Position numbers and translations under genes: made by a program. This document shows, piece by piece, positions 2,290-41,733 of a stretch of DNA of 64,000 nt. The notes beneath the pieces were generated by a model that made no database searches, was not told the DNA's origin, and was given only the letters and a program-made list of their open reading frames with translations. The stretch spans positions 119,166,001 to 119,230,000 of the forward strand of contig CM059431.1 in the NCBI GenBank assembly GCA_030390025.1. Reading direction: 5' to 3'. The DNA comes from Squalus acanthias (lineage: Eukaryota). How positions within the stretch are numbered: position 1 is the stretch's first letter; every line of letters starts with the position of its first letter.

Positions 2290-2760
2290 GCTAAAGACTT
2301 GGTCAGACAGAAGTGTTTTTTGGAGGATTTTGAAAGCAGAGAGGAGGAAAGGCACATGGATTTGAGGAGATTGTTCCAGAGGGCAGGCCTATTGTGGCTG
2401 CAAGGTTTGCAGTCGACGGTAGAACAGAGGGAGAAGGAAACAAAGAATAACCTGGAGTTGGAGTAATAGAGGATGCAGGAGGCATGTATGGCTGAAGAGA
2501 TTGATGAGGTGTGGTGGCACAAGACAGGTTTATGATTTTAGCTGGGGTGTGATTAGGAACTGGATGGAAGGATCAGGGGAACAGTTGGTGAGCTTCATAG
2601 ACAACACAGTGTAATGAAGGCTGGGTAGAAACAGTCTTGTGTGGAATGGATAGGATTTCAGTAAGGAAAAGGACACGAGGGAGGACTGGAGATTTAAGGG
2701 AGTAGGAAAGGGGAAAAGACAGAAGGCAGAGGCAACTGTGCGGATGGCCATAATTTTGGC
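2290..2760 (-). mobile_element. Degenerate L2-type LINE 3' fragment
   Basis: Minus-strand ..PALWNNL.. and resemblance to the L2 3' end at 24350-25565. Confidence 0.5.
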
Positions 2761-3548
2761 GCAATAAAATACATGAGTACCTCAGCAAATTCACTGGAGA
2801 AAGTCCCGATGGTAATAGTAAACATTCCAGGATCAGTTTTTATTGAGGCTATGTATTTCGAGTTGAGTTTACTGTGTATAAAGTTGCAATACTTTCAGCA
2901 TTGATAATTACTGGTTCTATCATGCTAACAGCATAACCTAAACATTAATCAAAGTAATATCAATACGAGCTCTCAACATCCACCTCACTCTGAACATTCA
3001 GCCATAAAGTGCAATCCTTTTGAACTGAGGTGATTTGGTTTGGCAGTGCAAGGATAAGGCTTACCCAACACAAAAGTGCTACTGAGTTGATATACAAAAA
3101 TGATAACTGAATCTTTTTGATACATGTGTAAAAATCCTGACAAGGTGATTTAAGATCCCCAATTTCTAAATTCAAATATTGATACATTTACAAGGTGACA
3201 TTTTTATAGGATTCATATTGTCTGTCGTAAACCTTGCATAAATTAAATGTTCTCAACGATTTGCACGGAAACATGTGGAAATTGTTTTGTATGGAAGACT
3301 GCTGCCTTTTAAATAGCTGCAGTCCTCATTCTATATAAATGCAAATCTACCTGCTGCAATGAAATGGAATTCATTAGTTTTCCTCATACCTGTGGCCATG
3401 ATCTTATTACACAAGTTGTATCACAGGATGTTATTAGTATGCAAAAATGACAGACCCATCAGAGAAATAAAACAAAAAACAATGTGACTGTTTTAAAATT
3501 ACCTATTTTTCATTTGCATATTGGTTCTCAAATGGTTTAATACCTTTG

Positions 3549-4882
3549 GGGGGAGAAATTCAGTGGGTTTGCATCCCCCAGGGGGCGATAACAGGGCGCT
3601 AGCGACTTACCGCCCAGGCGCGGCTAGATGAATGACTTCCGTTAACTTGGCCGGGAGGGTTGTGGCGGTGGTAATACTTTGTGCCATGATCTCCTGCGCC
3701 TAGAGATCGTGACGTCATTGCCGTGCACATCGCCCCGGATCCAAACTTCGGTTCCGCCCCCTGCAGCATCGCTGAGCGAAAACACCGACAGCTGCAGGAG
3801 GCGTTGTTCGGGAGGCCGGGCGCTTCGGGGGCAGAAGTTAAAGGGGAGGGTTTTTTTTATTCGTTTATGGGATGTGGGCGTTGCTGGAAAGACCAGGATT
3901 TATTGCCCATCCCTAGTTGCCCTTGAGAAGGTGGTGGTGAGCTGCCTTCTTGAACCGCTGCAGTCCTGTGTGGTGAAGGTACTCCCGCAGTGCTGTTAGG
4001 GAGGGAGTTGCAGGATTTTGACCCAACGACGATGAAGGAATGGCAATATACTTCCAAGTCAGGATGGTGTGTGACTTGGAGGAGAACTTGGAGGTGGTGG
4101 TGTTCCCATGCGCCTGCTGCCCTTGTCCTTCTAGGTGGAAGAGGTCGCGGGTTTGGGAGGTGCTGCAGAAGAAGCCTTGGCGAGTTGCTGCAGTGCATCT
4201 TGTAGATGGTGCACACTGCAATCGTGGTACGCAGGTGGTGGAGGGAGTGAATGTTTAAGGTGGTGGATGGGGTGCCAATCAAGCGGGCTGCTTTGTCCTG
4301 GATGGTGTCGAACTTCTTGAGTGTTGTTGGAGCTGCACTCATCCAGGCAAGTGGAGAGTATTCCATCACACGCCTTACTTGTGCCTTGTAGATGGTGGAA
4401 AGGCTTTGGGGAGTCAGGAGGTGAGACACTCGCCGCAGAATACCGAGGTTGCCGAGGTAAGTAGGAAAATTTCTAAAAAAAAATGTGCAATTTTTTTCAT
4501 TTCTCCTGGGCTGCGATCGATTAGACAAGCACTCTGCTGGAGTGCATGGGGCTGATCGGGCCGAATCACGGCTGCCATCGGGCACCAGCTAACTGGTCCC
4601 AATGCCGAGCCTGCAGCGATGGGCCTTCCCTTTAAGGGAAGGAAGGAGCTTTGGATCGTGGCAGCGCTGCATGGGAAATTGTGCAGTGCTGCACCACTAC
4701 CGCCCCGCCTGCGTCCTTTAGCACCCCAGGATGGAAGTGGAGCGCTTATTTAGCACTCCACTTCCTTCCTGGAGCGCTAAACCCAATTTCGTGAAAGTTG
4801 GGAATCATTAGCGCCTGGCGCTAACTTTCCCAGCTTTCAAAAGTTACCGCCTTCAAACGGGGCGATAATGAATTTCTCCCCC
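3549..4882 (+). mobile_element. Harbinger-type MITE (family A) carrying a LINE insertion
   Basis: Perfect 13-bp TIR GGGGGAGAAATTC; TTG on both flanks; collinear with the uninterrupted copy 15755-16513. Confidence 0.88.
3850..4444 (-). mobile_element. 3' fragment of a poly(A)-tailed CR1-group (L2/Crack-like) LINE
   Basis: LGILRRVSHLLTPQSLSTIYKAQVR..MEYSPLAW; same family as 44885-46558 and 60855-63058; A-tail at ~3850. Confidence 0.85.
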
Positions 4883-22290: not shown

Positions 22291-22639
22291 ACTTTGTTCT
22301 ATAAGTTATTAGAAACAGAAATTCAACGGAAAGTGTTTTATTTCCATTTGAGGGCAGCAGGTTTTAAATTAAAAATTCTAAATTTAGTGATGCCTCACAC
22401 ATGATTCACTCAACAATTTGGCAATTAAATAACCTCTTTTCTTGAAGAAAATATTGCATATTCCACTATATACAGCTATTAGTAATAATTACTGTAGCTA
22501 CAGGAGATGCTTTTGTAAATCAATCATGCAGACAGATATCTTTGTGAAGTATATAATGTGTGCTTAAGAGACAGGTGTTACAGTGACAATTGTATTATTG
22601 AGTGACTCATGGGTTAATTTTAGCAAAGTAACTTATTAA

Positions 22640-23066
22640 GGGCAACACGGTGGCATAGTGGTTAGCACTGGTGCCTCACAGCGCCAGGGACCCGGGTTCG
22701 AATCTGACCTCGGGTGACTGTCTGTGTGGAGTTTGCACATTCTCCCCGTGTCTGCGTGGGTTTCCTCCGGGTGCTCCGGTTTCCTCCCACAGTCCAAAAA
22801 TGTGTGGGTTAGGTTGATTTGGCTATGATAAATTGACCCTTAGTGTTAGGGGGGATTAAATATGTGGGGTTATGGGGATAGGATGGGATATGTTAGGGGG
22901 AATTAAATACGTGGGGTTACGGGGGTAGGGTGGGATATGTGTACTGTGGGGATTAAAGCAGGGACAGGGTACTGGATTTGGATGATCAGCCATGATCGTA
23001 TTGAATGGCGGAGCAGGCTCGACGGGCCGAATGGCCTACTCCTGCTCCTAGATTCTATGTTTCTAT
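22640..23066 (+). mobile_element. HE1-like V-SINE, full length
   Basis: tRNA head (GGTGGCATAGTGG, GGTTCGAATC), V-domain (tgtgtggagtttgcacattctccccgtgtctgcgtgggtttcctccgggtgctccggtttcctccc), CR1-derived tail. Confidence 0.92.
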
Positions 23067-23929
23067 CTAATGTTTATAGTTACCACTTGTATATTTGATC
23101 AAACAATTAATTACATCATGTGAAGCTCCATCTTTTATTGCTTTCCTGCAACAATATATTATGCTCAGCAACGATAATGTAAAGTACATGTGTCTAATGG
23201 AGAATTAGCAAATGAAAGTAATGGAAGAGGATGGCTGCAGTAAATGTTTCTAGCTCATTGTCACTGTAGGTAGATTTCTAACACAAACTAAGTCGTTAGG
23301 GCAAAGGACTAGACAACACTCACATTTCTGTAATGTTGTCAATGATTACTACCTAACACTTGATTCCGTAGGCAGTGTTTGGATATTAACCACTGCAGCT
23401 GGAAATTAAATTTACTGAATTATTTAGTTTCATACAATATTCATTCAGTACTGCCCTTGGCGCTACGCTTTTAATATTTCATATTTCACACTATGCAGCA
23501 TTGCATGCTATTCAAGATTAATGCAATATGAAATGTAAGGAAACATTTACAGAATGGGAGCTTTCACAGGAATGCTGATGTGCCACTAGGTAAATCTGTG
23601 AGATCGGCCGGCCTGGGTACAGAGTGCTTCAACTGAAATGGCAATGTATGGCGCCTCTGAGGAAATTCATTTGTATGACGGTTTTGAGTAAATTTTCAGA
23701 GTTCTTGCAGGCGGTGTATTACCTTGCGCTCTGTGAATGCAGATTGGAAGATTGCGAGTCCGTTGCCTGCAAATTTCCGATGTGCACTTGTAACATGAGG
23801 TGCCTCACAGTGTGCGACGATTCGGAAAACCTACCCTTACGTGTGTGTGTGTGTGTCTGTCTGTGCATGCATCTTTGTACAACAGACCATGTGAGATAAT
23901 GAGTAAATAATTTATCAACTAGTTACTAA

Positions 23930-24349: not shown

Positions 24350-25565
24350 CCTTTCACAAACTCCACTCCCTAGCCACCGACTCCACCCCTCTCTCTGGCA
24401 ACTGTCTGAGGCTGAACCAGACCATGCGCAACCTTGGTGTCACATTTGACTCCGAGATGAGCTTCCGGCCACATATCCGCTCCAACAAGAAAAGCGCCTA
24501 CTTCCACCTCCGTAATACTGCCCATCTCCGCCCCTGCCTCAGCTCATCTGCTGCTGAAACCCTCAACCATGCCTTTGTTATCTTGACTATTCCAATGCTC
24601 TCCTGGCCGGCCTCCCATCTTCCACCTACATAAACTTGAGCTCATCGAAAACTCTGCTGCCCATATCCTATCTCACACCAAGTCCCGTTCACACGTCACC
24701 CCTCTGCTCACTGACCTATCTGGCCTCCTGCTCCGGCAATGCCTCAATTTTAAAATTCTCATCCTTGTTTTCAAATCCCTCCATGGCCTTGGCCCTCCCT
24801 ATCTCTGTAACTTTCTCCAGCCCTACAAGCCTTCGAGAGATCTGCACTCCTACAATTCTGGCTTCTTGTGCATCCCTGATTTTATTCACGCTACCCTTGG
24901 TGACTGTGCTTTCAGCTGTCTAGGCCTTAAGCTCTGGAATTCCACCCCCCCCCAAACCTCTCCGCCTCTCTACCTCTCTCTCCTCCTTTAAAATGCTCCG
25001 TGGGTAACACGGTGGCATAGTGGTTAGCACTGGTGTCTCACAGCGCCAGGGACCCGGGTTCGAATCTGACCTCGGGTGACTGTCTGTGTGGAGTTTGCAC
25101 ATTCTCCCCGTGTCTGCGTGGGTTTCCTCCGGGTGCTCCGGTTTCCTCCCACAGTCCAAAAATGTGCGGGTTAGGTTGATTTGGCTATGATAAATTGACC
25201 CTTAGTGTTAGGGGGGGATTAAATATGTGGGGATAGGATAGGATATGTTAGGGGGAATTAAATACGTGGGGTTACGGGGGTAGGGTGGGATATGTGTACT
25301 GTGGGGATTAAAGCAGGGACAGGGTACTGGATTTGGATGATCAGCCATGATCGTATTGAATGGTGGAGCAGGCTCGACGGGCCGAATGGCCTACTCCTGC
25401 TCCTAGATTCTATGTTTCTATGTTTCTATGTTAAGACCTACCTCTTTAACCAAGCTCTTTGTCATCTGTCATAATATCTCCTTATGTGGCTCGGTATCCA
25501 ATTTCATTTGATAATGCTCCTGGAAAGTTTTACTACAGTAAAGGCGCTGTATAAATACAAGTTGT
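24350..25565 (+). mobile_element. L2 LINE 3' fragment interrupted by a SINE
   Basis: RNLGVTFDSEMSFRPHI...AYFHLRN...LRPCLS..AETLNHAFV; L2-type tail aaaggcgctgtataaatacaagttgttg. Confidence 0.85.
25002..25430 (+). mobile_element. HE1-like V-SINE, full length
   Basis: Near-identical to 22640-23066. Confidence 0.92.
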
Positions 25566-31865: not shown

Positions 31866-32513
31866 ATGGTAATAAATAGTAAGCTGTTTAATTTGGTATT
31901 TATCCAAAATATAAACAAAAATAAATAAGTTGTAAGTGCTTTCAGGATGGAACTTTTAACTTTGGTAGGGGCACAAAACAAGTGCTGTCAGATTGGCCGC
32001 CCGTTATATACCCCACCCCATTTTCCTTTACATTTGCTTCAATGGCGGCCAATCTGATATTGTTTGTGTTACACCCCCTACCAAAGCTGAAAGTGCTTGT
32101 GCTTGTGTAAAATTCGCAATTATCGCGATTCGAAATAACGAGATAAAGCAGATTTGTTTCATCAGTTTTATTTAAACGAAATGCTGTCATGATTAAACAG
32201 GACACAGAAGCCTGTAAAATGGCCGCCGAGCATCGTGGCAGAAGCTTCCAGAATACAGTGGGCAGACAAGATGGCGTTCGAATAAACATTTCAGTATAAG
32301 ATTGGATAATACACAGCCAACACTGATAAAGACAGGATGCAACCTGTCTGCATTCGACACAATAGCAAAGATATAAGTGCTGGAATCATTTTCCATGCAC
32401 AAGTAAGGACCATTGTAATGGGCAATCGAAGGCCCATCCAGACACAGCAATACACATATCAGTATTCGAGGAGGCCCCAAAACCAGTCAGGGAGACTCCT
32501 AGCTGGTTCGACA

Positions 32514-34396
32514 ATGGGGAAAACATTAACGGATAGTTGGCCAGTTTCAGGTGCTACCAATACCCATTAAAGGAAAGAATCGCCCCATGCTGGGAGTTTT
32601 GTGCACCAGAGCAAGCAATAGTATTAGGCAACGAGAGTAATGTTTTAGACCCTGGTGTGAATGGGCGAAATGTGATGGATGAGAGGATAGCCGACTATGT
32701 GTTTGGGAAGGTTAACTTAACCAAAAGGTGGATAAGTGACCTGCTGATGGATAAGCGTCCGCTAGACGCCGCCATCAAATGGACAGGCAGTAAAGAACAT
32801 AAGAAGTCGGTAGAGAAAGCGGTCTGGCTGAGGTGCTACAAGAAGCAAGTCCAACTTTCGGACCAGGCCATTGCAGCACAGGCAGCTCAGATCAGGGAAT
32901 TGGGAGTTGAGATGGAGGAAAAGGTCACGGGAGGACAGAAACTCATTGCATCCTTGAATGCTTTACATCAGGAACGCCAGATAGTAGCCAACCACCATGA
33001 GACTAAAATTGATTACCTAGAGTGTCAGGTCACGGAATCAAAGTTAAACGAGGGTAGGATTAGAGAACGGTGTATCCGCCTAGCTAACCAGATAAAAGCC
33101 CAAGAAGAAAGCTTGCTGGGAGTTAGGGCGGCATACAAGATGGCCCTCGAGGATAGGCATGAGGGAGCTGACCACAGTGTTTGCCAGAAGGAGATAGGGA
33201 ACCTAAGAGAGGCCCTGAATAAGGCAAACGGCATGGTGTGCCTCATCAGCCCGTCAGCACACCAGCCACAGGTGAGTAGGTAATTCCCAAAATCCCTACC
33301 AGACAAAGCAGAGGAGGTATTTGCCACTGCACCCTCCGCGCCACCCAGCTATTCGGCAACCTGGGTAAGGAAGGAAGTGGTGGAAATAGAAGAGGAGGTC
33401 CCCGAGGTAGGACAATCCCCAGAGGTAGTGTCAAAGCCGGGACCGTTGTGTCCGCTCACAGGTCACAAGAGGGGCCCAAACGGAGCCAATGGGGAGGACG
33501 GGGATGTCCTGAACCAGCTTGTGTTGCCTCACAGCTCACACCAGTTGAGAGCGATGATTAGTCATGTACGGAAGCTGTCTGAGTCAGACGACCCTTCCGT
33601 ACACTTCAGGGAGGTAGAACAGACCGCAGCAATTAATGGCTGCGACGATGTGGAAAAGACTAAAATGTTGCTGTTCTCGTTAGATAGCTCGATCCTTCAG
33701 TGTCTCTCAGACGAGAGCAAGAGGGGAAATAATACCTATGAGGAGTTAAGGGACGAGGTCCTAGAAGTGTTGGGGGCGGATGACGAAGGTCCGTTCGTTA
33801 GATTGGGTCAGACAGTTGAGATGGAGGGAGAACCCCCGAAGGTTTTCGCCGACAGGCTGTGGCCAGTATACTAGCGTAGCTGCCCAGGCGCGCCAGCGCG
33901 CGACGATCTGGATGGTGTCGGTTTAACTCATTGGCTCAGGTGTTTTGTAGCCAACAGTTTGCCAGCCATCAGGGAGCAGGCCAAAGCGTGGCTTGATCCC
34001 ACTAACCCCGCCACAACAGAGGAGTCGGTCCTAAATCGACTCACCATAGGGTATCGGAACACTAGGAGCATGGGAGCGCGTCCCCTTAAGGTGCATGAGG
34101 CACGGCCCGCAGCCCCGGCTCAAAAGGAGTGGCATCAGGAGGGAAACCGCGCCCCACAGGCCAGTGGTGCTTGTTACGGGTGCGGAAAGACAGGTCACTG
34201 GCGTAAAAACTGCAGGAATCCCTGGAAGGATTCCAGGGAAAAAGCTCCCGCAGTCCGAACCCAAGCGCCTGTCTCTGAGAAAGGAGCTGGTGTGCCTATC
34301 CATCCCGATGCGATAGAATCAATGTTGGGAGCCATGCGGTCTCTTATGATTTCGCACGGGGAGGTAGCAACAGCCCCATACAACCCAGACTTCTGA
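32514..34396 (+). pseudogene. gag: Gag polyprotein pseudogene (coiled coil, PSAPPSY late domain, capsid-like region, CCHC knuckle)
   Basis: ORFs 32537, 33377 and 33959 share one frame, separated by single stops (33281, 33872); CYGCGKTGHWRKNC at 34172-34213; ATG 32514 joins via a 1-nt frameshift. Confidence 0.8.
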
Positions 34397-35290
34397 CTGG
34401 AACCGGTGCAGCCTGCCTACCTGTGTCCCCTTGAAAGACGCGCACAGGAGGGGGTCTCCTGTAAGGAGGCCAGGTTAAAAGAGCAGGCCTTACGGGAGGA
34501 GAACGCCCGCTTAATGGGGAAAATAGATGGGCTGGAAGGGCAGCTTAGAGCCATGGTAGCAGAGTTGCCCAAACTAAAACAGGATAGAAATCTGCAGCCT
34601 CCAGCAGGTGAGATTTCACAGAAACAAGCAGGGGTGGTGGCCTGTCTTAGGGGAGGGGCCAGACCTGCGAGTGGGGACTCTCAGCCCCAAGCAGGACAGC
34701 AGGGCACACAGACCGGTAAAGCAGCCTGCGTGAGGGGAGAGGACATTCTAGGAAAGTGTAAGATCTTTTCTTGGGGTTGGGATTCCGATGAGGGAGAGCT
34801 CGAGGAGCTCGACCAAGATAGTGACCCGATCGGAGAGGTGCTGAGATCGGAGGACGAAAGGTTCGTCCTCGACTCAAGCTTAGGGGAGATAGGGATTGCG
34901 AGTGGAGATCCACACAGGGTGGAATCAGAAACTGCAGGTCCCGAGCCCAGGGGGGCGGAGCTAGGGGAGACGGAGCCAGCGGCTGTGGTAGGACCACAGG
35001 TCGTGACGGTGGAAGTCTCGGAACCCGGTCCGTCAGCCCTGGAAGTCTTGCCCTTGGGGGAGGTAGGGATTGCGAGTGGAGGACCACATACTGGGCCAAG
35101 TAGGGTGGTACCAGAAACTGCAAATCCCGAGTTCAGGGAGGCGGAGCCAGGGGAGACGGAGCCAGCGGCTGTGGTAGGACCACAGGCCGTGACGGTGGAA
35201 GTCTCGGTACCCGGTCCGTCGGCCCTGGAAACCTTGTCCAATGTAGCCCTCCGTAGGTCAGTTCGGACACCCCAGCCCAGGAAGGCGTAG
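34397..35290 (+). CDS. ORF in frame with gag: coiled coil, acidic/Pro-rich duplicated segment, integrase-tail-like LRRSVR end
   Basis: 294-aa ORF directly after TGA 34394; no protease DTG/DSG, RT YxDD or integrase core seen. Confidence 0.5.
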   Translation: MEPVQPAYLCPLERRAQEGVSCKEARLKEQALREENARLMGKIDGLEGQLRAMVAELPKLKQDRNLQPPAGEISQKQAGVVACLRGGARPASGDSQPQAGQQGTQTGKAACVRGEDILGKCKIFSWGWDSDEGELEELDQDSDPIGEVLRSEDERFVLDSSLGEIGIASGDPHRVESETAGPEPRGAELGETEPAAVVGPQVVTVEVSEPGPSALEVLPLGEVGIASGGPHTGPSRVVPETANPEFREAEPGETEPAAVVGPQAVTVEVSVPGPSALETLSNVALRRSVRTPQPRKA

Positions 35291-36389
35291 TCAAGTCCCC
35301 CATACGCCCCCAGGCGTAAGTTCAAGGTCAAGGCAGCCCAGGGAGATCCCAGTCCCAGCGCAGCAGCGACAGGCTGCGGCAGATCAAAGGAAGGGGTCAG
35401 GAGAGAAGGTGGTAGGTGTGATAGAAGAGTGAACAATTGTGACTTTCTTTTCTTTCCTTCCTAATCTACTTATTTTAAATTATATTTATTTATATTTAAA
35501 TGGTGTCCACGAGTTAAAGGACACAAAATTTAGACTAACCTTAAGGTATAGCTTTAAACTATATTGTTTTACGATCACTGACTAAGGCAGTTCTCCTAAC
35601 AGAATAAAGTACAAGAAATTATTCCAGTTTCCCACACAGTAATAAATTATAAAAAATAGAGATCACTGTATAGCAAAATGCCCCTATTACAAATAACATA
35701 ATAAATAGTAACCTTCCATATTCCTCTATTTGATAGGTATATTTACCTTGAGTTACAGAGAGGCACAATGTATGTATACAATTACAAAAATATGTAGATG
35801 GATAGATGGACAGATTGATAGATAGACGGACAGAGAATTAGAAATGCACCTTATCCCCAGCATGGCAACCTGGTACTGTGTTGCACTGCCACTCACCTTT
35901 GACTGAGTAACTTTCCAATTACTTGCTGACCCTTGGCCTTCTCTTTTTTCAGGTTCATCTCATGACTCAAGCCATGCTGCACAAGAGATGGAGGGAGACC
36001 AGCCTTGTCGAAAGTGCACCATCACTCGCTCCATCCTTACCAAGCACCAGCACAGAAATCTGCACACCAGATAAGATCGAGTCAGAGGGGTCTACACAAA
36101 ATGTATCACTCAACACTAGTGAGCAGCAGCTGCAATAGTGGAAAGTACAGATGGGAGACAATTAAGTGAGGGCAAGCTTGGACAGAGATGCAGACTTCAA
36201 CAGCTCAACCTTTGAAGGAGAGATCTTCTATGTGCACCAGAAATTTCTTGAGGTATCGGGCTGCCTGCCTAAGACCTGCTGAAACATGTCTGACATTATG
36301 AAGGATTCCGGTTCTAGCTTGTGTGTTGTACTGGCACAAGGTCTCGACACTCTATAGTCTGCCATGGAGTGTATGCATAAATAAAAAAA

Positions 36390-37084: not shown

Positions 37085-37975
37085 TAGCAGATAAAGAGAG
37101 AAGAAATGAAATAAAGGCAACAGGAAGAAGGTGATAAAATATAGGAAGACATTAATAAGCTTGCAGAATGGGCGTGTAAATGGCAAATGAATTTCAATAT
37201 AGATAAGTGTGAGGTGGTGGATTTTGGTGGGTAGAATAAGGAGGCCACATACTGCTTGGATAATAAGAGGCTGAATGGCCTAGAGGAGCAAAGGGGTACA
37301 GATACACAAATCACTAAAAGTAGTGACGAAGGTTAATAAGGCCATAAAAAATGCAAACCAAGTACTGGGGTTCATTTCTAGAAGGATAGAACTGAAAATC
37401 AAAGAAGTTATGTTAAACTTGTATTGAACCTTGGTTAGACCACACTTGGGGGACTGTGTACAGTTCTGGTCACCATATTATAAAAAGGATATAGAGGCAT
37501 TGAGGAAGGTGAAAAAAAAGATTCACAAGGATGATACCAGAACTGAGAGGATATACTTATCAGGAAAGTTTGAACAGGATGGGCCTCTTTTCTCCAGAAA
37601 AGGGAAGGGTGAGGGGTGACCTGATAGAGGTCTTTAAGATAATGAAAGGGTTTGATAGGGTAGATGTAAAGAAAATGTTTCCACTTGTGGGGGAGTCCAA
37701 AACTAGAGGTCATAAGTATAAGATAGTCACTAATAAAGCCAATAGGGAATTCAGGAGAAACTTCTTTCCCCAAAGAGTGGTAAGAATGTGGAATGTGCTA
37801 CTACAGGGAATAGTTGAGGCAAATAGCATAGATGCAATTAAGGGGAAGCTAGGTAAGCACGTGAGGGAGAAAGAAACAGCTGATAGGGTTAGATGAAGTA
37901 GGGTGGAAGGAGACTCCTGTGGAGCATAAACACCAGCATAGACCAGTTGGGCTGAATGGCCTGTTTCTGTGCTGA
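37085..37975 (+). mobile_element. CR1 LINE 3' fragment
   Basis: VRPHLGDCVQFWSPY; RGDLIEVFKIMKGFD; FFPQRVVRMWNVL. Confidence 0.9.
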
Positions 37976-38364
37976 CCCTCAATCTAACTCAATGTAAGGC
38001 ACAGTGAGCTGAAAGCTGGATACTTAATATTTCTTTTGACATTTGTTAACACGATTAAACTGCGACATGTCTTCATTTGATGTTGTCTGCCGAGTGTTTC
38101 TGTAGTAGCTGTGGATTGCGGCATGTATATGAATGATGGTCAATGAGACAGCAGTTCTTCATTGGAGGGTAGATAGACTAGCATGACCTTCTGGTCAGGA
38201 AGTGGATGATATGGTGGGAGTTGGGAGAAGGAGCAATGGAGGTTACTGAATTGCTGGTGTACAGCTCTGGCTGCAGATTGATGTTGCTGACAGCCTTCTG
38301 CTGCTGCATCCTCCAGCTCATCAGTTTTCTTATTTTGATGTTGTGAATGATCTTCTTCATCTGT

Positions 38365-39188
38365 GGGAAAATGTGAGGTTATCCACTTTGGTAGGAAGAA
38401 TAGAAAAGCAAAATATTATTTAAATGGAGAGAGACTACAGATTGCTGCGGTACAGAAGGATTTGGGTGTCCTCGTACACGAAACACAAAAAGTTAGCATG
38501 CAGGTACAGCAAGTAATTAGGAAGGCAAATGGAATGTTGGCCTTTATTGCAAGGGGGATTGAGTATAAAAGTAGGGAAGTCTTGCTAGAACTGTACAGGG
38601 CATTGGTGAGACCACACCTAGAGTACTGCGTACAGTTTTGGTCATCTTATTTAAGGAGGGATATACTTGCATTGGCGGGTGTTCAGCGAAGGTTCACTAG
38701 GTTGATTCCTGAGATGAAAGGGTTGTCTTATGAGGAAAGGTTGAGCAGGTTGGGCCTATACTCATTGGCGTTTAGAAGAATGAGAGGTGATCTTATTGAA
38801 ACATATAATATTCTGAGGGGGGCTTGACAGGGTAGATGCAGAGAGGATGTTTCCCCTTGTGGGGGAATCTAGAACTAGGGGGCATAGTTTAAGGATAAGG
38901 CATCGCCCATTTTAGATGGAGATGAGGAGGAATTTCTTCTCTCAGAGGGTTGTGAATCTTTCGAATTCTCTACCCCAGAGAGCTGTGGAGGCTGAGTCAG
39001 TGAATATATTCAAGGCGGAGATAGACAGATTTTTGAAAAACAGGAGAATCAAGGATTATGGGGAGCGGGCAGGAAAGTGGAGTTGAGGCCAAGATCAGAT
39101 CAGCCATGATCTTATTAAATGGAGGAGCAGGCTCGAGGGACCAAATGGCCTACTCCTGCTCCTATTTCTTATGTTCATATGTTCTTAT
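38365..39188 (+). mobile_element. CR1 LINE 3' fragment
   Basis: KCEVIHFGRKN...LYRALVRPHLEYCVQFWS; tail present. Confidence 0.92.
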
Positions 39189-41296
39189 TGCCAACAGCAG
39201 CTCTTCCCCAATGCAGGGCAAATTTAAGCAGGGGGTATCTTCAACACTCTTCCTGGGCTGTACTTTAGGAAACCCCCAGATACATCCAGGGATTATTAAA
39301 AAGCTGTACTGGGCAGAATTCCTGAAGTAGCTCAAACACTCCCTCAAACACACTGCTTTGATATAGCAGATGCAGGCGGAAGATTCATCCTCTCCCTCCC
39401 CACCCCAATCAGAATTTCCTCCACAATTTACACAGGGCGGAATCCCAGCAGAACTGGATTCCTCTCCAAATGTTGGCCTTGGTTGCAAAACATACCACAT
39501 TTGGGCCCTCTCCTGCACCTGGAATTTCAGGGCCTGCTGAATTTTAAGATTGGCAACTGAAACAGCACCTTCTCCCCATTGTGGTTGTGTGCCCAATAAC
39601 AGGATGCAGCACACACCCAGTGCATACCCACTGCATGCAGCACACTTGTACTTGGAAATGGGGGCGGGGGGGGGTTCAGTTGCAATCTGGCAGAATGATA
39701 GCGATGCACTCTGCATGCAGATTACTTGGACACAGTGGGCAGAGGAAAACCAACCCTATGAAGTTATAAAATTGTTTGGTTGTCTTTGCATATATGAATT
39801 ATCAAACAGCTTCTGGAGTGAAACAATCACTAGTGGGATTAGAATAAAGTACTTCAGGTCTGTAAGAAATGTCAAATGATAGCTGTGCCATTTACAGAAA
39901 AGTAAAAGCTACTACTGCTGTGAGCTGAGACACAAACGTGTATGTCATTATCGTTGGCTTTCGAATTTGTTGGATAGCTTGGAAATTATCTTCATGGGAA
40001 ATTCTTGCGTGAAATTTTGAATTGTCAGATATTTCTAATTTTAATAATTCCTCAAAGTGTGAGGGATGAGAGCCTGCTGAATACAATTTATCTTCCTTCT
40101 TCAAACACTTCAAAAAAAAACAAAGATCATTTCAACAAAACAACACAATTGTGTTCTTTAAATAGGATTTGTACTTGGCATCTAAGAGGAAGCTGTCAGC
40201 CTAGAATAGGCTTTCTAAAGAAGCTTAGCTTTTAAAAGGACTAATTATTTTGGATTCATACTGGAAAAGAGAAAAGGGAAAGTGAATGCTTTTCAGCACA
40301 GTGCAATTTATCTGTCTTATCTACTTCAATCCCATCATATCTTAAGCATTTATAAACAGCCAGTACCACTTCTGATTTAGAGGATATGAGGGGACGATTT
40401 CCTCTTTGTGCAGTGTGTAGTATAATTATAAATGTATTCTTTACAAATAGTCTTTACACAAAGCTCACTGAAGAAATCTTACCCCATGGTTGCAAATTTT
40501 AAAAGTTACAGCACATGGAAGGCTCAAGAAGAGAAGCACTGAATTACAATTAGGTTAAGATAAATTAAAATTAGGGGGGTAGAATATCCTTGGGGGTTCT
40601 CTAATCTCCCGCCATAACTTTGGTGGAAGATTGGCGGAAACCACAGAGTAAGATTGGAAATGCTGCTTATGCACCAAGGCTACAATGGACGATTGGGAGA
40701 ACCTCCGTGAAAATTTCAGACACGATTCCATCTTATAATATGGGAGAAGAATTGCTCTATTCATTATATGCAGCAATATTGTAAGTATAAGAATTGTGTC
40801 CCCCTTTATTATGTGGACCTCCTAGGTATGCAATGGAGGGGCTTCCTTCAGCCCATATGTGAAGCCCAGGAGTAAGTTGTGAGATGGAACTGTAGCAAAA
40901 GGGTAAATAGTTGAAAGGAGGGAGGGTTGGAACTCAGAACTTTGGAAGGAAAGTCAGCCTCACAGTGGGTTTTTCTAAAGCCCCTCACATGAGAACCTAG
41001 AATAAGCAGTTGGTGATGAGTGAGCCTGGTATGCAGCAGTGGACTTGAGCGTTTAGAACATCAAAGTGGGCGGCTGTTTTCAAGGCACCCTATGTAGGTC
41101 CTCCCACCACAATGAAGGCAGATCTCCATCATATGGCTTGTATTCTTCCCAGTCAATGCTCCAGAAAATAGGATGGTCCTAACTGGACAAGCAGAAGGAG
41201 CTTATCAATACTCTGTACTATTAACCTGTGTTGTTCCCCGCACAGTTGGGCAACCCCAAACCTTTCCCAACCTGTGCCTGAGTTTTCTAGAGTTAT

Positions 41297-41733
41297 GGGC
41301 AACACGGTGGCATAGTGGTTAGCACTGGTGCCTCACAGCGCCAGAGACCCGGGTTCGAATCTGACCTCGGGTGACTGTCTGTGTGGAGTTTGCACATTCT
41401 CCCCGTGTCTGCGTGGGTTTCCTCCGGGTGCTCCGGTTTCCTCCCACAGTCCAAAAATGTGTGGGTTAGGTTGATTTGGCTATGATAAATTGACCCTTAG
41501 TGTTAGGGGGGATTAAATATGTAGGGTTATGGGGGATAGGATGGGATATGTTAGGGGGAATTAAATACGTGGGGTTACGGGGGTAGGGTGGGATATGTGT
41601 ACTGTGGGGATTAAAGCAGGGACAGGGTACTGGATTTGGATGATCAGCCATGATCGTATTGAATGGCGGAGCAGGCTCGACGGGCCGAATGGCCTACTCC
41701 TGCTCCTAGATTCTATGTTTCTATGTTTCTATG
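41297..41733 (+). mobile_element. HE1-like V-SINE, full length
   Basis: Near-identical to 22640-23066. Confidence 0.92.

Follow-up and report, generated by a model that had tools for sequence, protein, structure and literature searches.

A probable dead copy of a pol-deleted endogenous retrovirus sub-family in Squalus acanthias, and the Gag and Env proteins of its relatives

Endogenous retroviruses (ERVs) of cartilaginous fish have been described, in the surveys drawn on here, mainly at the level of the reverse transcriptase (RT) or Pol, with most of the RTs falling into clade III in the part of the survey literature cited here (PMC11089739), and the shark and lamprey 'ERV-Spuma' elements are listed in the cited part of another report as having no detectable Gag or Env domains (PMC10699275). 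Among the closest described systems is Bik-1 of zebrafish, a lokiretrovirus-related long terminal repeat (LTR) element which lacks pol, is present in high copy number and was recently active in its fish genome, and which has as its main product a Gag of about 600 amino acids (617 as given in the cited account) with an N-terminal coiled coil, termed foamy-like there, and a capsid domain (CA) (bioRxiv 10.1101/2024.03.25.586437). Lokiretroviruses themselves are described, in the part of the paper we draw on, as having a tether with RNase H and an Env similar to Pfam PF00523 with an RxKR site, a coiled coil and a transmembrane (TM) segment (PMC7947760). Here we report on a 64,000-nucleotide (nt) stretch of Squalus acanthias DNA (GenBank assembly GCA_030390025.1, contig CM059431.1, positions 119,166,001–119,230,000 of the forward strand), referred to below as the window, in which positions 32106–35400 are very probably a dead, 5'-deleted and 3'-truncated copy from a pol-deleted sub-family of an endogenous retrovirus. 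Nothing in the Gag of this copy, or in the ERV family to which it belongs, is outside the known kinds of systems.

A search of the 3.7 Gb genome with the window element returned at least 40 copies with 93–96% DNA identity (scores being computed for 40 of 7,237 initial candidates), and the anatomy and structure of the family could be read directly from these and other sister copies (given L numbers below). When intact, the pol-less form measures about 8.6 kb and consists of an LTR, gag, a TGA stop, an in-frame pol remnant, env, a purine-rich tract and a second LTR, in which the LTR has 1,347 nt (TG...CA), gag 599 codons and env 783 codons. The autonomous parent form is about 12 kb long and has protease (PR), RT, tether, RNase H and integrase (IN) where the pol-less form has the remnant. 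The LTR was defined by the match between L002 (reverse strand, 120–1466) and L021 (reverse strand, 2619–3964), which are 99.1% identical over 1,347 nt, and the sister copies have the TG...CA ends, the primer-binding site (PBS) after the 5' LTR and the purine tract before the 3' LTR that are typical of retroviruses, while three nt (AGT) were found in common in the one copy checked for a target-site duplication. The 5' alignment limit of most of 19 other copies falls at window positions 32104–32106, and at the other end matching to sister copies stops at about 35400 with env and the 3' LTR absent. When a flanking LTR pair was searched for within the window none was found, and what the window copy retains of its LTRs is restricted to LTR positions 1–504 and a 23-nt fragment, with the PBS deleted and no 3' LTR.

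The first-pass annotation of this DNA, made from the sequence alone, took the ATG at 32514 as the start of Gag, read the first residues (MGKTLT) as an N-myristoylation signal, and described the copy as dead with two stops and one frameshift. The two premature stops are real, and an ATG followed by an MGxxxT pattern does exist at 32514, but the rest of this reading did not survive comparison with other copies. The MGKTLT frame differs from that of gag and ends after 18 codons at a TAA (32568–32570); it begins at about position 409 of the 1,347-nt LTR, and the same short open reading frame (ORF) is also found in the 3' LTR of copy L021, downstream of env. Most other copies match 32106–32609 and resume at 32633 with about 850–880 extra bases between, and in 19/19 of them some 870 nt, the LTR end and PBS included, lie between the short ORF and gag. 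Around the 23-nt LTR fragment retained in the window, the other copies hold additional sequence, about 790 nt on its 5' side and about 77 nt on its 3' side, the latter containing the LTR end (CA), the PBS, the gag ATG and the first codons. The apparent frameshift is therefore explained by two deletions which fused the LTR to gag: the first, with its junction at 32609/32610 inside the LTR, removed LTR positions ~505–1270, and the second, of about 77 nt with its junction at ~32632/32633, removed the end of the LTR, the PBS and gag codons 1–10.

The true start of Gag can be recovered from the other copies, as in 19/19 of these the LTR ends ...CCCCTTACA and is followed by GAAA and then ATG GCG ACC. 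Codon 2 in these LTR-intact copies encodes Ala in 16; there is one copy each with Met, Pro and Val, and no copy has Gly. P0003, an open Gag of 599 amino acids from one of the copies, starts MATAARGW, the closest homologue from outside the genome (a skate protein) starts MATT, and Gly2 was found in 0/12 Gag homologues, some of whose starts are gene-model predictions. Because the real start is of the Met-Ala type and Gly2 is missing from copies and homologues alike, Gag is not myristoylated, and on this sequence evidence we regard the myristoylation proposal as refuted; a Gag beginning with MGKTLT, myristoylated and one frameshift away from a functional form, is scarcely credible. The chief lesson is a negative one, namely that this 'myristoylation start' is an artefact of deletions joining LTR sequence to gag. 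We also note that in L002–L020 the PBS and the start codon of gag share sequence (A-TGG-CGACC...), so that there is hardly any leader, and that two versions of the PBS occur among the 19 copies, TGGCGACCGCGGCACGAGG and, in 3/19, TGGCGACCACGAAGGGAC; the primer may be tRNA-Arg.

Downstream of the deletions, Gag was found to be much as the first-pass annotation had described it, with one long frame running across the annotated ORFs (32537–34396) that is open apart from the two premature stops and closed by a TGA, a long heptad-like region, a capsid-like helical region and one CCHC knuckle (see Table 1 for positions). When Gag residues 66–215 were modelled as two copies, the result was a parallel, in-register helix pair with contacts every 3–4 residues from residue 72 to 185, with a median dimer score of 0.36 compared with 0.00 for the best of three controls; contact agreement was at least 1% and partner predicted local distance difference test (pLDDT) values were at least 55, and one of the three runs scored 0.00. 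The mark used for dimers was reached by 21/30 same-chain pairs and 0/23 single-chain proteins in the microbial calibration and by 17/29 and 0/30, respectively, in the eukaryote calibration. The model thus supports, but does not prove, a dimeric coiled coil at the N-terminus of Gag; a simple heptad count over residues 56–215 was uninformative.

The capsid-like region was modelled by AlphaFold2 (Gag residues 270–560, 26 aligned relatives) with a mean pLDDT of 82. Foldseek returned no match for this model at E ≤1e-3 (best ~2e-3), with the top rows, all sub-threshold, being human T-cell leukaemia virus type 1 (HTLV-1), murine leukaemia virus (MLV) and human immunodeficiency virus (HIV) capsids together with Arc. 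VIA-align against 48,161 chains placed the C-terminal domain of MLV CA first (Z 11.7, root-mean-square deviation (rmsd) 2.2 Å over 85 residues) followed directly by mature MLV CA (Z 11.2, rmsd 12.8 Å over 177 residues), and retroelement capsids occupied 35/35 of rows 1–35. These structural checks, the first two of which had been proposed in the first-pass annotation, confirm at the level of the predicted model that the helical region has the retroviral two-domain capsid fold. The sole Pfam match on Gag was zf-CCHC at the knuckle, and this was sub-threshold (17.9–18.6 bits against a cut-off of 20.8); there was no match to Gag_MA or Gag_p30, and none to Retrotrans_gag at E ≤1. In the PDB sequence search the HIV-1 nucleocapsid (NC) matched best (E 0.023).

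Table 1. Positions of features of the retroviral element in the window (numbered from the first nucleotide of the 64,000-nt stretch).
Feature	Positions	Strand	Basis
5' LTR, first 504 of 1,347 nt, begins TG	32106..32609	+	aligned to LTR positions 1–504 of a complete copy
Short LTR-internal ORF, MGKTLTDSWPVSGATNTH then stop, outside gag	32514..32570	+	other frame; same ORF in the L021 3' LTR
LTR fragment (~LTR position 1270–1294) between the two deletions	32610..32632	+	comparison with other copies
gag from codon 11 to the native TGA; start and codons 1–10 deleted	32633..34396	+	copies, homologues
N-terminal coiled coil (predicted), Gag residues 72–185	32816..33157	+	homodimer model
Premature stop TAA	33281..33283	+	read through in sister copies
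PSAPPSY, late-domain-type P(S/T)AP and PPxY motifs that overlap, in the linker joining the coiled coil to CA	33332..33352	+
Capsid (CA) N- and C-terminal domains (predicted)	33533..34078	+	AlphaFold2 and VIA-align
Premature stop TAG inside CA	33872..33874	+	read through in sister copies
Single CCHC zinc knuckle (nucleocapsid)	34172..34213	+	Pfam sub-threshold, HIV-1 NC match
Native gag stop TGA, pol remnant then in the same frame	34394..34396	+	junctions compared among copies
pol remnant ('ORF X') with 186-nt tandem repeat (34916–35239); element cut at ~35400	34397..35400	+

Homologs of this Gag include a skate protein that covers 100% of the query at 58% identity. When 1.84 billion representatives were searched with a profile, 148 proteins were identified at E ≤1e-3, of which 27 were at E ≤1e-10 and seven at E ≤1e-30. 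Remote neighbours carry Retrotrans_gag, Ty3_capsid, PNMA, SCAN or Gag_p30 domains. Ten clusters of Gag relatives were looked up, with three from Scyliorhinus torazame, one from Heterodontus francisci, one from Xenopus tropicalis and five without a name, making the named relatives of the family chondrichthyan plus one Xenopus protein. The Gag homologue P0004, from a skate (Rhinoraja longicauda LOC144598870 isoform X2), is full-length and open (588 amino acids) and belongs to an annotated gene with isoforms; either a recent ERV copy or a gag taken over by the host might explain it. The annotation of the skate homologue as a gene with isoforms, together with the developmental roles reported for Bik Gag proteins in the cited account (bioRxiv 10.1101/2024.03.25.586437), might suggest that the window locus too is a host-domesticated gag gene. 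We consider this extremely improbable, as the window copy has no start codon, carries two premature stops and is one among thousands of LTR-flanked copies. The window Gag is confirmed as a genuine retroviral Gag, well formed but decayed in this copy.

The PSAPPSY motif, which the first-pass annotation had noticed in a gap between the annotated ORFs, is indeed present, being exact in 17/20 copies including the window and replaced by PTAPPSY, PSAPLSY and PSTPPSY in the others. A 42-mer around it has 2,924 matches in the genome (≤3 mismatches; reversed control 0), and to judge by the copies the motif is an ancestral trait of the family within this genome. A P(S/T)AP overlapping with a PPxY arose in about 1–2 per 100,000 composition-preserving shuffles of the protein or of the linker, in what was a post hoc test. 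The same arrangement, with a shared proline, is found in the PTAPPEY of Ebola VP40, an unrelated matrix protein, and here the likeness is of motif only. A late-domain function for PSAPPSY in Gag is likely but unproven. Two observations weigh against it: the motif is not conserved at the corresponding place in the two nearest homologues from outside the genome (NSPSY in the skate protein and IAPSF in a Logan protein), and any P(S/T)AP or PPxY is found in just 6/12 homologues, at varying positions. Both would be expected if PSAPPSY were neutral within a Pro/Ser-rich linker and budding, if any, depended on other determinants, as would the conservation in 17/20 copies, which is no higher than the overall ~95% identity predicts. 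We think this neutral explanation possible but on balance somewhat unlikely, given the rarity of the overlapping pair in shuffled sequences (~2e-5), the purifying selection on Gag described below, and the presence of P(S/T)AP or PPxY elsewhere in the Gags of related lineages (a Heterodontus protein has PPAY plus PSAP elsewhere in Gag, and L036, a distant ERV of the same genome, has PTAPPY). The patchy distribution of the motifs among homologues fits position-independent late domains and neutral turnover alike. It should be noted that the PTAPPY of L036 is placed immediately before the CCHC knuckle, and is thus a late-domain-type motif at another site in Gag.

The native gag stop is a TGA in 18/19 of the junctions seen (17/18 matched sister copies plus the window), with one further copy not matched by the search motif, and the gag frame runs on past 34396 for another 297 codons to 35290. 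This extension, which is absent from the first-pass annotation, is the pol remnant, or ORF X. It is made up of the first ~12 codons of pro, a segment of about 290 nt (34360–34653) without a DNA match in six autonomous copies, and the 3' tail of the pol ORF (34654–35400), which is 96% identical to L045 5600–6346. The middle segment encodes a heptad-like stretch, and its 40-mer is found twice, 69 nt apart, in some copies.

The first 19 copies sampled over-represented the pol-less form, because the query included the pol-replacing segment. Eight copies were then picked by the PSAPPSY 42-mer alone, and six of these have PR–RT–RNase H–IN between gag and env, with one pol-less and one truncated. Relatives bearing env and pol, which the first-pass annotation had asked for as a check, therefore exist as sister copies with env and as autonomous members with PR–RT–tether–RNase H–IN. 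The Pfam domains of autonomous pol (L039 and L042) are RVP, RVT_1, RT_RNaseH_2, RNase_H, Integrase_H2C2 and rve, with the integrase having H2C2 and Tf2-1-type SH3 domains, and the best PDB matches of the PR–RT–RNase H region are xenotropic MLV-related virus (XMRV)/MLV (1.8e-71), prototype foamy virus (PFV; 3.4e-65), Ty3 (4e-42) and HIV-2 (2e-16). All of the five autonomous copies compared have Pol in frame downstream of the gag TGA, and in each of them (L039 (1902–1908), L041, L042, L043 and L045) gag ends ...CAA TGA CTA G before an in-frame protease, while the stop context of the pol-less copies is TGA CTG G. The context UGA CUAG is strongly prone to read-through. Marker counts in the genome were 2,924 (gag 42-mer), 2,213 (RT 42-mer) and 1,703 (40-mer specific to the pol-less form), with reversed controls of 0 each; some sites of the pol-less 40-mer are duplicated within one copy.

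Because Pol has the order PR–RT–tether–RNase H–IN, and since a tether followed by a second RNase H is the retroviral arrangement, the sequences assign the family to the retroviruses and not to ordinary Ty3/Gypsy elements. This agrees with the earlier claim of an enveloped, retrovirus-type Gag unlike that of ordinary Ty3/Gypsy, as env is present in the sister copies. A Ty3/Gypsy (Metaviridae) element with an acquired env would account for the Retrotrans_gag, Ty3_capsid or PNMA domains carried by neighbours in the remote Gag hidden Markov model and Atlas searches and for the integrase with H2C2 and Tf2-1-type SH3 domains, but it would leave unexplained the dual RNase H (RT_RNaseH_2 then PF00075), the retroviral protease match, RT–RNase H matches that are 25–30 orders of magnitude better with MLV and PFV than with Ty3, and the fact that the best structural match of CA is MLV. 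We judge such an origin very unlikely, and return to the retroviruses in considering the lineage of the family.

In the env of the sister copies (783 codons) we recognise a signal peptide, a furin-type motif (RQRR, near residue 329) and a membrane-spanning segment at the C-terminus, with long heptad helices after the RQRR site and before the anchor, and a C-terminal subunit with about 400 amino acids between the cleavage site and the anchor. No Pfam match was found for Env (P0002), including none to PF00523 at E up to 1, and neither single-sequence nor profile searches of the PDB gave any match (0 at E ≤1 and at E ≤10); pieces of the L036 Env likewise had no match to PF00523 at E up to 0.01. 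AlphaFold2 with a 12-row alignment gave a pLDDT of 32 and no usable fold. To judge by its sequence features Env may be a cleaved, membrane-anchored class I fusion glycoprotein, a class that is unproven for it. Segments of two Pristiophorus japonicus proteins annotated as 'Niban 1-like' (P0007) and 'ZFP2-like' (P0008) are 52–54% identical to Env over 30–39% of the query, and both gene models are probably chimeric annotations that have absorbed ERV env sequence.

A distant autonomous ERV of the same genome, L036 (G000:C7:61759000-61768999), has the same layout, with a coiled-coil Gag, one CCHC knuckle, an in-frame stop, a protease with LIDTGS, RT, tether, RNase H, IN and a homologous env. Its Env is 25–29% identical to that of the family (E 7e-16 and 2e-25) and its Gag CA–NC region 23% identical (E 1e-6), and its RT matches foamy virus best (4e-43, compared with 2e-31 for MLV) and its IN PFV IN (2.4e-18).

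The family may be compared on this basis with the described lineages. It might be a chondrichthyan branch of the lokiretroviruses, as suggested by the Gag of Bik-1, the tether and the cleaved, coiled-coil and membrane-anchored Env of the lokiretroviruses (see above), by Atlas leads for env to Baculo_F and Fusion_gly clusters (weak, score 0.75), and by the one Xenopus relative of Gag. The hallmark of lokiretroviruses is an RT clade that is sister to all the remaining retroviruses. Of their other traits, the N-terminal coiled coil and CA published for Bik-1 are found in the family Gag, but an Env match to PF00523 is not, the example in the paper having matched PF00523 at 2.2e-7 (PMC7947760). Chondrichthyes are also not among the five vertebrate classes of host given in the cited part of that paper (PMC7947760), and the PR–RT–RNase H region aligns end to end with MLV and PFV (1e-71 to 1e-65), as that of a class I or III ERV would too. 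We regard a place within the lokiretroviruses as unlikely. The likeness to Bik-1 is one of published description, and Bik-1 differs in that it lacks env, consists of one ORF and has a glycine-rich patch at the C-terminus in the account cited (bioRxiv 10.1101/2024.03.25.586437); the family has, in contrast, kept an env that is under selection and an NC with a CCHC knuckle.

Foamy viruses have an N-terminal coiled-coil Gag, as described in the same preprint (bioRxiv 10.1101/2024.03.25.586437), and a long C-terminal Env subunit comparable to the ~400 amino acids found here, in an Env that the cited text calls F-like (PMC11468914). The PFV PR–RT–RNase H matches that of the family (3.4e-65, as above) and PFV IN is the best match for L036. 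Foamy Gag is not known to be myristoylated, has a PSAP late domain and depends on Env for budding, and it has GR boxes in place of a Cys-His knuckle, with Pol made from its own mRNA and not as a Gag–Pol fusion. The family is unlike foamy viruses in these last respects, as it has a CCHC knuckle and a Pol that follows the gag TGA in frame in all five autonomous copies. The gammaretroviruses and epsilonretroviruses, represented by MLV, provide the best structural match of CA and the best PDB match of RT–RNase H, and share with the family the in-frame gag–stop–pol read-through layout and a single CCHC knuckle. Their Gag linker carries PPPY and PSAP late domains. In contrast, the family has no Gly2, no matrix (MA) domain (there being no Gag_MA or Gag_p30 match) and a coiled-coil N-terminus, and in its Env no gamma-type TM signature was detected and the C-terminal subunit is far longer. 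We have filed the family only as a retrovirus-type ERV, for which loki-like, foamy-like and epsilon/gamma-like placements all appear possible from the sequences.

Selection on gag and env was seen directly in the ratios of nonsynonymous to synonymous substitution rates (dN/dS) among pol-less copies, where the same alignments read one or two bases off served as the shifted frames. The ratio for gag was 0.31 (11 open copies, 55 pairs), compared with 1.12 and 1.16 in the shifted frames, and for env it was 0.19 (first 330 codons; eight copies, 28 pairs), compared with 1.51 and 1.67. The corresponding values for ORF X were 0.79 in frame and 0.76 and 0.65 shifted, indicating no frame-specific constraint. 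Because the contrast for gag and env is frame-specific, it indicates that Gag and Env were probably needed while the pol-less lineage spread. Several points count against this interpretation: the ratios are from open-frame copies alone, leaving out 8/19 for gag and 11/19 for env, the choice of open copies is itself an ascertainment bias, the pairs lack independence, and the signal could alternatively have come from recombination with autonomous genomes.

The pol-less sub-family may be likened to non-autonomous ERVs of the ETn/MusD kind, in that a deletion derivative rivals its parent in number (1,703 versus 2,213 marker matches). ETn is a non-autonomous ERV mobilised in trans by MusD. Unlike ETn, the pol-less sub-family has gag and env that are open and under purifying selection, with only the enzymes absent. 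We infer late-domain function, dependence on Env and trans-complementation, and propose the following scheme. Gag would multimerise through its coiled coil and CA and package RNA through NC, and having no lipid anchor it would probably reach membranes by means of Env or basic patches, by analogy with foamy viruses. PSAP would recruit the endosomal sorting complexes required for transport (ESCRT) through TSG101, and PPSY through NEDD4-type ligases, leading to the pinching-off of particles, and autonomous relatives would provide, in trans, the Pol that copies the pol-less genomes.

Elsewhere in the window, the open frames at 37513–37896 and 38351–38827 look, in translation and by eye, like the C-terminal part of a CR1-type long interspersed nuclear element (LINE) reverse transcriptase, and a CR1-like fragment similarly interrupts env in copy L022. 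A repeat of about 440 nt occurs in three copies in the window (22636–23075, 24998–25430 and 41293–41733) that are 91–99% identical.

With this family, complete Gag and Env sequences are available for an abundant lineage of chondrichthyan ERVs. The family might be the first chondrichthyan member to be characterised of a deep group of retroviruses, in the neighbourhood of the foamy viruses and lokiretroviruses, in which Gag is coiled-coil and non-myristoylated and Env is long and F-like, accompanied by a pol-less 'satellite retrovirus' of about 1,700 copies that retains its own selected Gag and Env and borrows just the enzymes from autonomous relatives, although we hold this larger claim to be rather doubtful. 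The points of note, which we find moderately interesting, are the mixed foamy and orthoretroviral Gag in a cartilaginous fish, in which a foamy/loki-type coiled-coil N-terminus is combined with an orthoretrovirus-type CCHC knuckle and a gag–TGA–pol read-through layout, and the very successful pol-less sub-family, which with its selected gag and env is useful for the question of which genes of a retrovirus are required in cis.

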